A stretch of 64,000 bases of DNA from an uncultured Chloroflexia bacterium (GCA_963746255.1 CAVVAJ010000005.1:301346-365345), one strand, 5' to 3'; numbered from the stretch's first letter, positions 13,688-49,560 are shown. Made by a program: numbers and translations. The notes: generated by a model from the letters alone, not told the origin.

Positions 13688-13800
13688 CCTTTATCAAGGA
13701 TGAAAGTTTCATTCGATATCCGAGGAAATACGCCCTTGACAAAGCTTAATGTGTTCCGTCTGCACTCTATTCTTACCAAACAATCAAATTTGTTGGAAAC
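13688..13800 (+). repeat. Dispersed bipartite intergenic element, copy R1 (modules A+B)
   Basis: Module A is CCTTTATCAAGG..CCCTTGACAAAGC enclosing the palindrome GATGAAAGTTTCAT. Module B is GTGTTCCG...AACAATCAAATTTGTTGGAAAC. It lies 47 nt upstream of the polyprenyl synthase start. Confidence 0.7.
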
Positions 13801-13809
13801 CTAGATGGC

Positions 13810-14841
13810 TCAGAGAGTCTTAATCAATTCCAATGCTAAAAGAGCTTCTATATCCTTCACTCCGGCGGCAAACATCGCTACTTGTATTTCCCGTTCAATT
13901 TCTCTGATTGTCATGACTGTCTCTTCCACTGAGATAGCTGCAGCCTTTAGAAATGGCGAAGCCATCCCGCCGATGTTGGCTCCCAAAGCAATGCATTTCG
14001 CGATATCCACACCTGTTCTAACACCACCTGATGCAATTAAGGGAATATCTTGATCGACATTACGTACGTTTAGTACCGATTGGGCTGTGGGATTACCCCA
14101 ATCACGGAAAGCTGCTGCAAGTCGCGCTTGGCTGGGAGATTTTGCTCGATACATTTCCACCTGCGACCAGGAGGTACCACCGGCACCTGCGACATCGATC
14201 GCAGCTACTCCGGCATTTATCAAAGACTTTGCTGCCTGTTCTGATATCCCCCAACCAACCTCCTTAGCAATTACAGGCACTCCTATTATGTTACACACAT
14301 GCTCAATCTTTTGGATTATTCCAGAAAAATCTGTGTCTCCTTCAGGCTGTACTGCTTCTTGGAGCGCATTCAGATGTAAAATTAACCCATCTGCAGCGAC
14401 CATTTCTACCGCGCGTAAACATTCATCAACTCCATATCCGTAATTCAGCTGAATTACCCCCAAGTTAGCAAATAATAAGATATCAGGGGCGAATTTCCGG
14501 ATCTGAAAGGTTAGATCCAAGGACGAGTCCTCCAGTGCGGCTCTTTGTGAACCCACGCCCATTGCTATTCCTGCTTCCTGGGCAGCGGTGGCTAACCTTT
14601 GGTTTAACCGTTCAGCTTCATCGCTACCGCCGGTCATTGATGAGATCAAGATAGGGGCACGAAGGGTTTTCCCCAGAAATTTCGTTTTTAGATTCACCTG
14701 ATTGAGATTCAGTTCGGGAAGTGCCTGGTGTTCGAAACGATACTGCTCTAATCCAGATGTGATAGACGAACTGACATCCTCATCGAGATTGATCCTGATA
14801 TGTTCTATTTTTCGGGAGCTGGTTGGCGTAACTTTTTCCAT
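13810..14841 (-). CDS. fni: Isopentenyl-diphosphate delta-isomerase, type 2 (FMN-dependent)
   Basis: 343 aa with N-terminal RKIEHIRI and glycine-rich FMN-binding segments ([13 protein letters not shown]). Confidence 0.85.
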
Positions 14842-15029
14842 TATGCGGTGTTCCTGTGAAGTAGAATTATATTACCAGTCTGATCTAGCTATGTCAACGA
14901 AATGTCCTTGAACGCTTGGCTCAGAAGTCAACAAGGACGAGTTGTTCAATATCGAGTTCGGAATTATACTTGACAGATGGGTAAGCGGAGTTAAAATTAG
15001 ATCGTATATAAAGGATAAGGAGGATTTAC

Positions 15030-15269
15030 ATGTCTGATACCTTCATCGAGGTCAGAGAAATCGTCGTCGACTTATTAGGTGTCGATGAATCAAAAGTTAC
15101 CCTGGATGCACGCTTCCGTGAGGATCTGGAGGCGGATTCGCTAGATCTTGTTGAATTAATTATGGCTTTTGAGGATAAGTTTGGCGGCGAGATCTCCGAC
15201 GAGGATGCTCAGAAGATTACAACTGTTGGTGAAGTTGTGAATTATATCAATGATAAAATGCTCGCATAA
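15030..15269 (+). CDS. acpP: Acyl carrier protein
   Basis: 79 aa with phosphopantetheine attachment motif [16 protein letters not shown]. Confidence 0.9.
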
Positions 15270-47206: not shown

Positions 47207-47226
47207 GAGGAGTAATTTGTTAATCC

Positions 47227-49494
47227 TTATAACAAACGCAGTTGGGACGTGTCTATTGTCAGGGGGTCTAGATCAAGATTTTCAAAGAGATTTTCTCTGG
47301 TTAACAGAGGGGAATCAAGTAAGTAATGCACATGCCTGAATTTCATAAACCGCCAGCCCCGATTCAGGATTTCTGATAAGTAGGGGTTATTCCGTTTTTT
47401 GTAAATCGCTAATGATGCTCGACTGCCCGGGATAACAATAATAGATTTCTCGGGCGGTAAAGTCTCTGTGAGTATGGTTTCGGAAAAAGTGGCGGAGGCG
47501 AATACAATAAATGCTAACGAAATTGTACTCCCCTCATCTAGCCACAAAAGCGGTCTTTCCCCCTGGATAATAAAGCCCAATTTTTCCCCAACCACCTGTA
47601 ATGATGCATAAATATTCGCGATATCTTGTTTCCGATTTCGTGCTTGTTCTTTCTGCTCCATGTACCACAAAGTGCTATTTGCTGGACGTTCCTCAGCGTA
47701 AGACTCCAAACACGTCTCAATCAATGAGCGCGCGGGTGTATTCATTCCAGGGAACTGTTGATTGAGATGTGAAGTAATAGCTAATCTTGTCGATCCAGGA
47801 TGCTGCAACAGATAGTTGACGAATTCCATCTCTATCCGGTCAGAGAGAGGGATAGCAGACCCTTCAGGGTGCACCAACCACCATTTGCCAACTTCAAGTG
47901 ATTTATCGCTGCTATCATATCGTCGAAATAGACCGGCTTTATTGAAGGTATTCTCAATAATATGATTGGCATTCACTAATATATTTGTGGGTGAGACAGC
48001 TCCTCTCCTTGGATCTAATTCTGGAGCCGTCAAGGTTCCAGTCCCGGCCATATTCTCCAGTACCACCGCTTGGATATTAATGAATGCGGATGGTTCGCCA
48101 CGTTGGCTCAGGAACTCGGCGGCAGTAGTTTGATTGCTTTTTACGAGTTCATATAGGTTGACATTGACTTGAGTGTGAACTGTTGGATTGTGACTCCATG
48201 TCATCTGGGCTTGATCTTTCTCTGATTGCAACGCAATGCCAGTTAAATCGAAACTCGCAGCGTATGCGGAGACTATGACAGCTGCCAGGAACCCCGATTC
48301 TGCTTCGGGTAACAGACCGAGTACCGGTGTTCCTGACCGTAAAAGCGGATCGAGAGCGGCTAAGGCGGAATATAGCGCTTCGCAGTGCCAGCTCCAATCG
48401 TAGCGGCGACGGCGGAGTACAGACTTGAATGGTCCGATTGCTTCGCGACCCCATAACCAGCCAGCCCATAATGCCGACAAAGTCCAATAAGCTTGATTGG
48501 GTCGCGGGAAAGTAGTGATGACGGCATCGATGTTCGCATCCGGCATGCTTTCAGCAAATTCCTTTATACGACCATCATAGATTGAAATACCTCCGCTCGA
48601 TGGCGGTAAATCAGGCCACCTAGTTAATGGGATGTTGCTGGCTTCATCTGAAAGAAAACCGACCGCGTTTTCTAGTGCCATCCAAATATTATGCTCGTAG
48701 TAGCGGGGCGGGATGGAAAGTTGTTTTGGCCGTGGTCGGCGGGCTCTATATGACCATAGATTATTTCCGCGATCGAAAGCTGCAAGCAGCAATGCAATAA
48801 TGGGTTGGTGATGAGCGTGCGATGGAGGGTAGCTATCTAATCTATTGATTAGTGTGAAGAGGCTGAATACCGCCCTATCTGAGTATGTGGCAAGTGCTTC
48901 CTCTACATGGGACCGATCTGGATCGCTAATTGATGCTACCCGCTCCAAAGCCCGTGCTTTATGTAGCGGATTGCGGGCAAAGCTTGCTGCACGGTTAATA
49001 TCCTGATCCGTCACTGGGAACTCGCCGGATTCTCCACAAACAGGGCAGCTGTAATTTCGGGCTAGCAGAGTGTTTGTGTCTCGCTCCCAAATGAAACTCT
49101 CTGCTTGAACTTCGCGATCACACTGATGGCAATCAGTAATATATAGGGAGCGGATATAAGGTTCCAGGCGTGTATCACCTTTCCGATGTGCTGCCAGGTC
49201 TGCCAAGGCAGATTGCAGGTTTGCGGCTGTCGGTTTGTTGGTGTTAAATTCAAGCAGGAAGCGCGAAACAGGATTATTTGCGGCAACGATGACACGGTAG
49301 CCGGAGCGGGCCAATTCCACTGGCACGAACGGGGATGCGCCAAATGGATCTAGTATTAATGAACCAAGGTGTAGATTATCGTTTGCCCATCCTGATGCCG
49401 ATCCTCGTGGAACTGGGGGTATAAAGCGAACCAGAGGATGCCTATCATCAAGATCCACTCCCGGGTAAAATGTGATTGGGTTAGCCATTAGCAC
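47227..49494 (-). CDS. Large hypothetical protein with methyltransferase-like FxGxS/G motif and CxxC...CxxC zinc ribbon
   Basis: 755 aa with N-terminal LILDPFGASPFVPVELARSGYRVIVAANNP, then DCHQC...CPVCG, then DAVITTFPRPN. No confident family match can be made by eye. Confidence 0.35.
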   Translation of the reverse strand: MLMANPITFYPGVDLDDRHPLVRFIPPVPRGSASGWANDNLHLGSLILDPFGASPFVPVELARSGYRVIVAANNPVSRFLLEFNTNKPTAANLQSALADLAAHRKGDTRLEPYIRSLYITDCHQCDREVQAESFIWERDTNTLLARNYSCPVCGESGEFPVTDQDINRAASFARNPLHKARALERVASISDPDRSHVEEALATYSDRAVFSLFTLINRLDSYPPSHAHHQPIIALLLAAFDRGNNLWSYRARRPRPKQLSIPPRYYEHNIWMALENAVGFLSDEASNIPLTRWPDLPPSSGGISIYDGRIKEFAESMPDANIDAVITTFPRPNQAYWTLSALWAGWLWGREAIGPFKSVLRRRRYDWSWHCEALYSALAALDPLLRSGTPVLGLLPEAESGFLAAVIVSAYAASFDLTGIALQSEKDQAQMTWSHNPTVHTQVNVNLYELVKSNQTTAAEFLSQRGEPSAFINIQAVVLENMAGTGTLTAPELDPRRGAVSPTNILVNANHIIENTFNKAGLFRRYDSSDKSLEVGKWWLVHPEGSAIPLSDRIEMEFVNYLLQHPGSTRLAITSHLNQQFPGMNTPARSLIETCLESYAEERPANSTLWYMEQKEQARNRKQDIANIYASLQVVGEKLGFIIQGERPLLWLDEGSTISLAFIVFASATFSETILTETLPPEKSIIVIPGSRASLAIYKKRNNPYLSEILNRGWRFMKFRHVHYLLDSPLLTRENLFENLDLDPLTIDTSQLRLL

Positions 49495-49506
49495 TCCTGT
49501 ATACTA

Positions 49507-49560
49507 CTGTTCCGTTTAAACTCTATTTTAACTAAACAATCAAATTTGTCGGAACAACAG
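49507..49560 (+). repeat. Dispersed intergenic element, copy R4 (module B only)
   Basis: CTGTTCCGTTTAAACTCTATTTTAACTAAACAATCAAATTTGTCGGAACAACAG, 13 nt upstream of the 755-aa gene start. Confidence 0.7.

Follow-up and report, generated by a model that had tools for sequence, protein, structure and literature searches.

The window analysed here, a 64,000-nucleotide (64 kb) stretch of the genome of an uncultured member of the Anaerolineales (Chloroflexota), carries five copies of a small repeat in the spacers between long open reading frames (Table 1). Four are full copies of 118-122 bp composed of two modules, A and B, and the fifth is a solo module B of ~57 bp; none has coding capacity. R1 lies 5 nt past the stop codon of a type-2 IPP isomerase-like gene and ahead of a polyprenyl synthase gene, R2 has a NUDIX gene on one side and a pentapeptide-repeat gene on the other, and the tandem pair R3a-R3b (together R3) adjoins a permease gene, for which an exact look-up returned nothing on record. 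The solo module B is located downstream of an acetyl-CoA hydrolase/transferase gene and its putative terminator, and adjoins, from upstream, the AGGAG ribosome-binding site of a gene for a 755-aa protein. Every copy is also situated downstream of a co-directional gene, and the distances from the element to the downstream start codon at the four loci are about 53 (polyprenyl synthase), 39, 162 and 13-18 nt, respectively.

Table 1. Copies of the repeat and neighbouring host hairpins in the 64-kb window; strands of the copies refer to the A-to-B orientation.
Feature	Position	Strand	Description
R1	13683-13804	+	Full A+B; CTAG at both ends (13683-13686, 13801-13804); profile HMM E = 7e-37
R2	34979-35098	-	Full A+B, reversed; flanks CTAC (degenerate) and CTAG; E = 6e-35
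R3a	40189-40310	+	Full A+B; first member of head-to-tail pair; E = 3e-34
R3b	40307-40424	+	Full A+B; second member of tandem pair; CTAG on both sides; E = 1e-31
Solo module B	~49501-49563	+	~57-63 nt; E = 5e-8 to 5e-10
Hairpin 3' of solute-binding-protein gene	40428-40465	-	Kept in relatives L020 and L022 (alignment)
Terminator-like GC hairpin	49627-49650	-	Read from sequence; listed on the plus strand in the terminator scan

The preliminary description of this DNA had reported five copies of a two-module element, and we find them at those places, with true bounds that are slightly wider (R1, for example, has the limits given in Table 1). A degenerate module-B pattern matches exactly these five sites in the window, far beyond chance (expectation from 100 shuffles, 0.00). 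With a profile HMM trained on the copies, the full ones are recovered at E = 1e-28 to 1e-37 and no sixth copy is detected in the 64 kb. The modules are likewise as described: A is an inverted repeat with the inner palindrome GATGAAAGTTTCATC, and B has GTTCCG/CGGAAC arms and the core AAACAATCAAATTTG, both being degenerate in single copies, and one copy does consist of module B only.

The full element is a pair of hairpins, A and B, over ~120 nt, each spanning 55-60 nt with a loop of 30-35 nt. Its two ends (GTGCTTTGTCAAGGATGAAAGTTT and, inverted, GTGTTCCGTCAAATTTGATTGTTT) form an imperfect inverted repeat of ~27-30 bp, CTAGTGCTTTGTCAAGGATGAAAGTTT... versus CTAGTGTTCCGTCAAATTTGATTGTTT..., with 20 of 30 matches in the consensus (0 of 5000 shuffles are as good), 15-18 of 30 in single copies (p = 0.002-0.04) and ~62% identity outside the CTAG. 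The "invariant core" of module B forms the inner half of this terminal inverted repeat and is paired with the beginning of module A. Each end also repeats its own outer 11-13 bp internally, in inverted form, which gives rise to hairpins A and B, and the stems of the two are related to one another (10 of 14 positions identical). The B core is 15 nt long, asymmetric, near-invariant and flippable within its own stem, and in one related locus (L002) module B is inverted relative to A. Column conservation peaks at both ends and is lowest in the loops. Folded as DNA, R3b, whose hairpins are the best kept among the window copies, reaches -19.6 kcal/mol (z = -4.6). Well-kept copies form two stable hairpins (z = -4.5 to -7.6), and in the L007 subfamily stem A is a perfect 15 bp with two compensatory changes; the stems of R1 and R3a are decayed (z = -0.9 and -1.2, respectively). 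The solo module B ends in an inverted repeat of its own, ATACTnnTGTTCCG ... CGGAACAnnAGTAT.

R1, R2 and R3, three of the four loci, correspond in syntenic relatives with 77-89% protein identity to a short spacer without the element. The R1 spacer is 56-61 nt in three relatives (L012, L013 and L018) versus ~180 nt in the window, and comparison with them reveals that 118 nt were cleanly inserted at a single CTAG, the empty site reading ATCTAGAG and the filled site ATCTAG[118 nt]CTAGAA. The R2 spacer is 68-71 nt in L020, L021 (84%) and L022 (77%) versus 185 nt in the window, and at R3 the whole tandem pair is lacking from L020 and L022. A single CTAG stands exactly at the empty site for R1 (L012) and for R3, where in L022 it falls exactly at the junction. 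The R1 copy is also present in a strain of 98% identity (L029), and the R2 site in a 96% strain (L019) is filled and identical, strains of this 96-98% range being found in the JGI samples 3300001371 and 3300005832; the filled/empty pairs date the insertions between the 89% and the 96-98% identity splits of the lineage. A likely fourth case of this kind is the pair L026 (172 nt) and L028 (67 nt).

Beyond the window, a metagenome scan yielded 10 loci, three of which (L004, L006 and L010) look like chance matches. Further copies (L001, L002, L003, L005, L007/L026, L009 and L011) lie on contigs that have only the element in common, the dispersed copies being on contigs otherwise unlike the window and each other; a look-up of a protein flanking the L007 copy returned no named homologues. 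In a representative genome collection, in which the source genome is not represented, the pattern matched one contig only (L001), and viral contigs gave 0 matches. The MAG GCA_041551115.1 has one contig with a copy, and its syntenic loci are empty. The window copies are 73-78% identical among themselves, whereas each is 78-84% identical to the consensus-like copies L003 and L005. The pattern of similarity is star-like, the window copies being nearest to L003/L005; they are old, decaying copies. Short-read contigs end inside the element, which explains the breaks in short-read Anaerolineales assemblies at these spots.

CTAG is found on at least one side of 9 of the 12 copies, and on both sides for most. 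In the tandem pair, R3a has a degenerate CGAG on its left, and the CTAG on its right (40307-40310) is common to R3b; a second solo module B, in L011, has CTAG/CTAG flanks. CTAG at both ends, together with a single CTAG at the empty sites, fits a duplication of TA or of CTAG, and fits equally an element that has CTAG at one end and was inserted beside a CTAG; the flanks are therefore no proof of target duplication, since an own-end CTAG beside a target CTAG looks alike. The tandem arrangement of R3a and R3b arose when a second copy inserted into the regenerated CTAG at one end of a first.

The preliminary description had suggested a cis-regulatory site shared by the genes, a structured RNA in their 5' leaders or a miniature mobile or REP-like element. 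The last of these gains support from the empty orthologous sites at three loci, the CTAG flanks, the terminal inverted repeats and the copies in unrelated contigs. The other two find no support, the same spacers in close relatives being without the element and the family polarity being mixed. We therefore hypothesize, and think it highly likely, that the repeats are a MITE, a non-autonomous transposable element, which at ~118-122 bp lies within the size range of such elements (about 50-300 bp) and reaches a density of five copies in 64 kb here. On the best reading of the flanks the element targets CTAG, and TA is probably duplicated. This target signature suggests that the mobiliser is probably a DDE transposase of the IS5 or IS630 type; IS5-family (IS427/ISL2-like) and IS630-family enzymes are known for a CTAG/TA target. 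Such an enzyme, supplied in trans, would bind both inverted-repeat ends, excise the element and insert it into the TA of a CTAG, duplicating the TA. That the copies in the window are intergenic and oriented as they are would reflect where insertions are tolerated and not a function, and copies that are co-transcribed would add hairpins to mRNAs, with no host role implied.

One contig (L026) has an 871-bp IS5-family IS (NF033580, 203 bits) 2.3 kb from an element copy. Its ends are GAG...CTC and are flanked by TA within CTAG, as are those of the element, and both begin with G.G after the TA. This IS is not the direct parent, because its terminal sequence, GAGCGTGTTATGCAC, differs from the element ends, GTGCTTTGTCAAGG and GTGTTCCGTCAAAT. 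No autonomous element with matching ends, and no cognate IS, was found in the window and 29 other loci (270 kb); throughout these 270 kb the L026 transposase was confined to L026, L007 and L008, and an IS630-type transposase was not seen in this analysis. Among the closest known systems are IS5-family insertion sequences of the IS427/ISL2/IS1031-like groups (NF033580) and the MITEs derived from them, to which Tourist MITEs of eukaryotes (PIF/Harbinger, related to the IS5 family) are analogous. If a cognate transposase were found, the pair could, speculatively, be a small CTAG-targeting insertion tool for Chloroflexota.

Several known repeats resemble the element in kind. Correia elements (CREE/NEMIS) of Neisseria are 100-160 bp long with ~26-bp inverted repeats and TA flanks; they lie near genes and between co-directional genes, form hairpins in co-transcribed mRNAs and occur as internal-deletion size variants. 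The element is like them in size, inverted repeats, TA flanks, gene-near sites between co-directional genes and size variants, but its sequence and host are unrelated, and of the two only Correia elements are known for RNase III processing and promoter creation. RUP of Streptococcus pneumoniae, a 107-bp MITE for which IS630-Spn1 is the presumed mobiliser, is small, non-coding, intergenic and multicopy, with inverted-repeat ends and insertion at TA, all as in the element; there is, however, no sequence similarity, the host belongs to another phylum, and in the element each end is additionally repeated internally in inverted form, which results in two hairpins. BOX elements of S. pneumoniae and BIMEs of E. 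coli are modular, as is the element with its module B alone, or flipped versus A in L002, but their modules are unrelated to it in sequence; BOX elements have no clear target duplication, and BIMEs are built of REPs with GTAG tags. According to work by Tenzen et al. in 1990, IS630 is said to prefer CTAG and to duplicate the central TA. TA duplication is documented for the IS630 family (PMC2170065), and Correia elements are counted among bacterial MITEs (PMC3733652). The repeat is best read as selfish DNA of an ordinary type rather than as a switch that several genes share. It would add a MITE family to the phylum, no earlier description having been found in the literature and collections searched: literature searches gave unrelated primer matches only for the sequence strings of the element, and nothing specific for MITEs in Chloroflexi.

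The best-surviving alternative, which we nevertheless consider unlikely, is that the element is REP/REPIN-like and moved as ssDNA by an HUH tyrosine transposase (RAYT or IS200/IS605-like) that reads the two subterminal hairpins plus a CTAG tag and inserts beside CTAG without target duplication. REPs, like the element, lie mainly between unidirectional and convergent genes, and Chloroflexi are among their hosts (Di Nocera et al. 2013, PMC3733652). Like GTAG/CGTC REPs, the element has palindromic stem-loops, here two subterminal ones with related stems, and a conserved tetranucleotide stands directly at the foot of each hairpin, the position taken by GTAG in REPs (PMC3733652). CTAG at both ends can be read as "target plus own end" as well as duplication, and the solo module B resembles a single tagged palindrome. 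However, the REP superfamilies are defined by GTAG or CGTC (PMC3733652), whereas here the tag on either side is CTAG; the loops are long (30-35 nt) and the unit, at 120 nt versus 20-40 nt for REPs, is three to five times longer, so that by structure the class, a palindrome of 20-40 bp with a GTAG/CGTC tag at one end, is not matched. The long end-to-end inverted repeat reaches well past the stems, which is unexpected for IS200/IS605-type ends and points to a DDE enzyme and not to a RAYT. R2 is inverted versus R1, R3 and the solo module B, with no replication-direction switch seen in the window, which argues against strict strand-specific insertion, and beside one copy lies a DDE IS whose TA-in-CTAG flanks are the same.

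We count several observations against the MITE reading: the imperfect terminal inverted repeat, the ambiguous CTAG flanks, the search of 270 kb that found no autonomous partner, and the polarity of the copies, all four window loci having one polarity versus the downstream gene. The rule of B, then A, then gene holds on the gene strand at 4 of 4 loci in the window and breaks down in related loci: across the family, polarity versus genes is mixed (module B 7 versus 4), and the polarity of module A is opposite to that of the window in L001, L002, L007 and L009. As a regulatory sign, four same-oriented loci amount to p = 1/8 only, and the "fixed polarity" of the window is a small-sample effect. 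A local functional bias may lie behind it. There is a slim chance that Chloroflexota have a class of CTAG-tagged hairpins, a third tag beside the GTAG/CGTC REPs and moved as ssDNA by an HUH-type enzyme, or that module B was recruited as a gene-proximal regulatory or promoter cassette; recruitment in this lineage would explain the uniform polarity of the four window loci.

A cis-regulatory DNA site shared by co-regulated genes, serving upstream of them as operator or promoter and having TTGACA on either strand, would agree with that uniform polarity 13-162 nt before start codons, with the TTGACA in both arms of module A and with promoter-like matches across the R3a/R3b junction (10 of 12) and, more weakly, at two places near or in the solo module B. 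We find it very improbable, because the same genes in close relatives are wholly without the element, the R1 site being an operon-like spacer there, the downstream genes are functionally unrelated and family-wide polarity is mixed. A promoter and terminator scan of 34.5-50 kb gave counts at chance level (22 promoter-like sites found versus 24.3 expected), and by eye no good -10 boxes are aligned with the outward TTGACA of module A at R1, R2 and R3a. An IHF site was also sought by eye in the B core WATCAANNNNTTR; agreement is confined to the WATCAA half and is lost in the AATCAC variant.

Equally hard to sustain is a structured RNA (a 5' leader, riboswitch or small RNA) kept for its fold. The two stable hairpins of the well-kept copies and the compensatory changes in the perfect stem A of the L007 subfamily are in line with it; palindromy, however, is expected anyway from inverted-repeat ends, and the stems are decayed in several window copies. 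The element is found in both orientations versus transcription, and orthologous spacers are without it. Rfam 15 at gathering score gave one tRNA only for the whole window, and a permissive scan (E <= 10) of the tandem pair (40150-40480) gave chance-level matches far below gathering scores. Covariation, assessed with RNAalifold and explicit pair counts, is not above shuffled controls: pairing (82%) and covariation are reached by 285 of 500 and 202 of 500 shuffles, the pair counts of helix 1 being conservative because the right arm of L007 is mis-registered in the alignment. For annotators, the repeat is not to be called a riboswitch or an operator.

Integron attC sites, in which the core sites R'' (RYYYAAC) and R' (GTTRRRY) bound an imperfect palindrome between cassette genes and next to an integrase, were considered and rejected. 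Neither arm of the repeat, ACGGAAC or GTTCCGT, agrees with these core sites, and the flanking genes are housekeeping genes that are syntenic in relatives.

Two further hairpins in these spacers are host sequence (Table 1). The one 3' of the solute-binding-protein gene directly adjoins the R3 insertion site. The terminator-like GC hairpin lies outside the element and bounds the spacer with the solo module B. A T run comes after it when the minus strand is read (plus-strand AAAAAA, 49621-49626), as suits a terminator belonging to the acetyl-CoA hydrolase/transferase gene upstream.

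The repeat is real, far beyond chance, since a degenerate module-B pattern matched exactly five sites in the window (0.00 expected in shuffles) and a profile HMM recovered the four full copies with E = 1e-31 to 7e-37 and the solo B copy with E of about 5e-8. The five copies lie where the preliminary description had located them, although their true limits are slightly wider than it gave, and the profile HMM, run over the whole window, found no sixth copy. Aligned in one orientation, the copies define a unit of 118-122 nt with CTAG at either side; R3a and R3b lie head to tail and have one CTAG in common.

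Coordinates of the element copies and of other features in the window and in related loci (positions without a locus name are those of the window)
Feature	Position	Strand	Composition	Flanking genes
R1	13683-13804	+	A+B	type-2 IPP isomerase-like gene / polyprenyl synthase
R2	34979-35098	-	A+B	NUDIX gene / pentapeptide protein
R3a	40189-40310	+	A+B	triple solute-binding protein / ABC permease (R3)
R3b	40307-40424	+	A+B	as R3a
Solo B	about 49501-49563	+	B only	acetyl-CoA hydrolase/transferase gene / 755-aa protein without Pfam domain
Hairpin after solute-binding-protein gene	40428-40465		CCGGGATGGGAAA...TTTCCCATCCCGG	
750-aa ORF upstream of R3	40496-42748	-	708-nt unit, three times in tandem and in frame	
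Repeats of the 750-aa ORF	40505-40804, 41213-41512, 41921-42220			
Direct repeats, first pair	58394-58467, 59565-59638			
Direct repeats, second pair	58831-58948, 59995-60112			
Adjacent ORFs holding the direct repeats	57905-58780, 58623-60476			
Full copy in L002	131-252		A+B	
IS5-family IS in L026	6052-6922			
Same IS in L007	about 1707-2577	-		
Weak profile match in L004	1654-1725			
Match to module-B core in L028	2238-2252			

The host belongs to Chloroflexota. Its polyprenyl synthase and NUDIX protein have their best homologues in Chloroflexota or Anaerolineales MAGs, and synteny with the window, at 77-80% protein identity, extends to contigs of the MAG GCA_041551115.1 ("Anaerolineales bacterium"). 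Comparing orthologous spacers, we observed that the one between isomerase and synthase measures 56-61 nt in the related loci L012 (89% identity), L013 and L018 (80%) as against ~180 nt in the window. The alignment contains a single clean 118-nt insertion, the empty site in L012 reading ...GAATCAT-CTAG-AGATATTTTC and the filled site in the window ...GAGCCAT-CTAG-[element]-CTAG-AAATATTCTC. R1 is also present in the JGI contig L029, from a strain at 98% identity, which stops within module B (L029 1-60). The NUDIX-pentapeptide spacer is 68-71 nt long in L020 and L021 (84%) and L022 (77%) as against 185 nt in the window, and L019, a 96%-identity strain, has a filled site identical to that of the window. 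Both tandem copies of R3 are absent from L020 and L022, the junction in L022 being TATCTAGCACAC, with CTAG exactly there, as against TATCGAG[2 copies]CTAGTACAC in the window. A fourth filled/empty pair, from another lineage, is likely represented by L026, whose 172-nt spacer contains the element, and L028, orthologous to it at 62% and with 67 nt, these spacers being too diverged to locate the junction. An operator or leader RNA, if conserved, would be expected in the relatives' spacers; the absence of the element from them therefore identifies it as an insertion, which lies in CTAG, has inverted-repeat ends, exists in a shorter derivative and can enter the CTAG in which a previous copy ends. 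The apparently empty spacer of L028 has ACTAAACAATCAC, which agrees over 13 nt without a mismatch with the conserved module-B core (AATCAC variant); this could be what remains of an old copy, or chance. Short-read (Logan) contigs with the pentapeptide gene start exactly 100 nt upstream of it, inside R2; such assembly breaks at the repeat, there and in L029, suggest that those genomes have many copies of it.

Module A forms a hairpin with arms GTGCTTTGTCAAGG / CCTTGACAAAGC enclosing GATGAAAGTTTCATC, and a short junction (TTAAAG or similar) joins it to module B, a second hairpin with arms AGTGTTCCGTC / GACGGAACACT and a loop containing AAACAATCAAATTTG. When the 30 nt at the left end of the consensus (CTAGTGCTTTGTCAAGGATGAAAGTTTCAT) are compared with the reverse-complemented 30 nt at its right end (CTAGTGTTCCGTCAAATTTGATTGTTTAGT), 20 positions match, a value attained by none of 5000 shuffles (single copies, 15-18/30). 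Given this match, the "almost invariant core" described for module B makes up the inner half of the terminal inverted repeat on the right; its counterpart is the beginning of module A, with part of the GATGAAAGTTTCATC palindrome included. Per-column conservation is maximal at both ends and the junction and minimal in both loops. The outer 11-13 bp of each end are also repeated internally in inverted orientation, so that two hairpins result; single-strand folding of well-preserved copies is strong (z = -4.5 to -7.6), and the folds of R1 and R3a are decayed (z about -1). Size, lack of coding capacity, inverted-repeat ends, dispersed copies and the insertion polymorphism of the orthologous sites are together those expected of a MITE, which supports one of the initial suggestions, a miniature mobile element. 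It behaves like bacterial MITEs such as RUP and Correia, with a modular flavour as in BOX elements. We found no prior description of it in the literature; searches with its sequence strings gave unrelated primer matches only, and nothing specific was found on MITEs in Chloroflexi. The element is genuine and has a clean explanation, but it is an ordinary one of its kind.

We hypothesize that a DDE transposase acting in trans would bind the ends of the element, and that it would integrate, with a duplication of 2 bp, at the TA within CTAG. A target duplication is likely, if formally ambiguous, and we lean towards duplication of TA, with element ends G...C, over a 4-bp duplication because of the flanks in two related loci: the TA model accounts for those of L003 (TTAG left, CTAG right) without mutation and for those of L001 (CTAG and CTTT) with one, as against two for L001 under the 4-bp model. 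CTAG is the preferred site of IS630, where TA is duplicated. IS427/ISL2-type elements of the IS5 family also make 2-4 bp duplications at such sites. TA duplication is documented for the IS630 family (PMC2170065). An 871-bp IS5-family IS lies 2.3 kb from the element copy in L026 and recurs in L007; its 268-aa transposase has DUF4096 and DDE_Tnp_1 (NF033580 at 203 bits, cut-off 110), its 21-bp inverted repeats match at 18/21 positions, and its ends are GAG...CTC, with TA within CTAG at both sides. Because its terminal sequence differs from that of the element, this IS exemplifies the mechanism in these genomes and is not the parent; roughly 270 kb of window and related loci yielded no element with matching ends. 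Mobilisation by an HUH/RAYT-type mechanism, which CTAG at both ends would fit equally well as "target plus own end", seems to us improbable: CTAG is neither GTAG nor CGTC, the tags of REPs (PMC3733652), the element is far longer than a REP, its two ends form a long inverted repeat, and its orientation is independent of the replication strand, since R2 has the opposite orientation to the other three loci with no GC-skew switch across the window.

All copies in the window sit between two co-directional genes; each is upstream of a gene, as first described, but equally downstream of one. Relative to the downstream gene the order is B'-A'-gene throughout the window and in L003, and A-B-gene in L001, L002, L007 and L009, while module B alone splits 7 to 4 in orientation over window and related loci. 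The apparent fixed polarity is therefore a small-sample effect (four loci, p = 1/8). This mixed polarity and the empty orthologous sites contradict a shared cis-regulatory site, which we consider very improbable: the downstream genes are unrelated in function, the 34.5-50 kb region has no excess of promoter-like sites (22 as against 24.3 expected), and the one good promoter-like match involving the element is a hybrid spanning the R3a/R3b junction. A structured 5' leader RNA, contradicted by the same two observations, is no more credible, as the proposed covariation check gave no excess over shuffles (82.1% of cells pair with both stems specified, equal to the shuffled mean; 2 compensatory pairs as against 1.7). 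Rfam returned one tRNA alone in the window and no credible match on the R3a-R3b tandem pair. Co-transcribed hairpins may have a secondary effect on the host, as those of Correia or ERIC elements do. The hairpin directly adjoining the R3 insertions, kept in L020 and L022 despite a diverged spacer, is probably the terminator of the solute-binding-protein gene.

Copies of the element also occur outside the window. L001 is the sole contig matching the module-B pattern in the representative genome set, and belongs to GCA_041551115.1, the MAG whose loci syntenic to the window copies are empty. Seven metagenome matches are genuine (L002, L003, L005, L007 and the identical L008, L009 and L011) and three more look like chance. 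The contigs with the element, at 45 to 55% G+C, have nothing else in common with the window or one another. A second solo B, with CTAG on either side, is that of L011. In the full L002 copy the B loop is inverted relative to A, with junction and stem unaltered, as expected from recombination between stem arms. L007 and L026 form a diverged subfamily (55-62% identity) whose stem A is a perfect 15-bp one with two compensatory changes. Identity is 73-78% among the window copies and 78-84% between these and the consensus-like L003 and L005, a star-like pattern that points to independent decay from a common source. Over 55 nt the B module of L002 and the solo B of L011, which come from different metagenomes, have 100% identity. 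The weak match in L004 (E = 0.003), on a 37% G+C contig, in a region that has AAAACAATCACATTTCACGGAA as well as a local tandem repeat, may be a distant module-B relative in another taxon, or chance.

The window holds two further sets of repeats. The units of the 750-aa ORF are 95-96% identical, and each comprises a whole solute-binding domain of family 3 (three SBP_bac_3 stretches); the alternatives for the ORF are a very recent triplication in frame and an artefact of assembly, and the relatives' contigs end there. The direct repeats at 58-60 kb, of 70-77% identity and ~1165-1171 nt spacing, look like tandem paralogous genes or domains.
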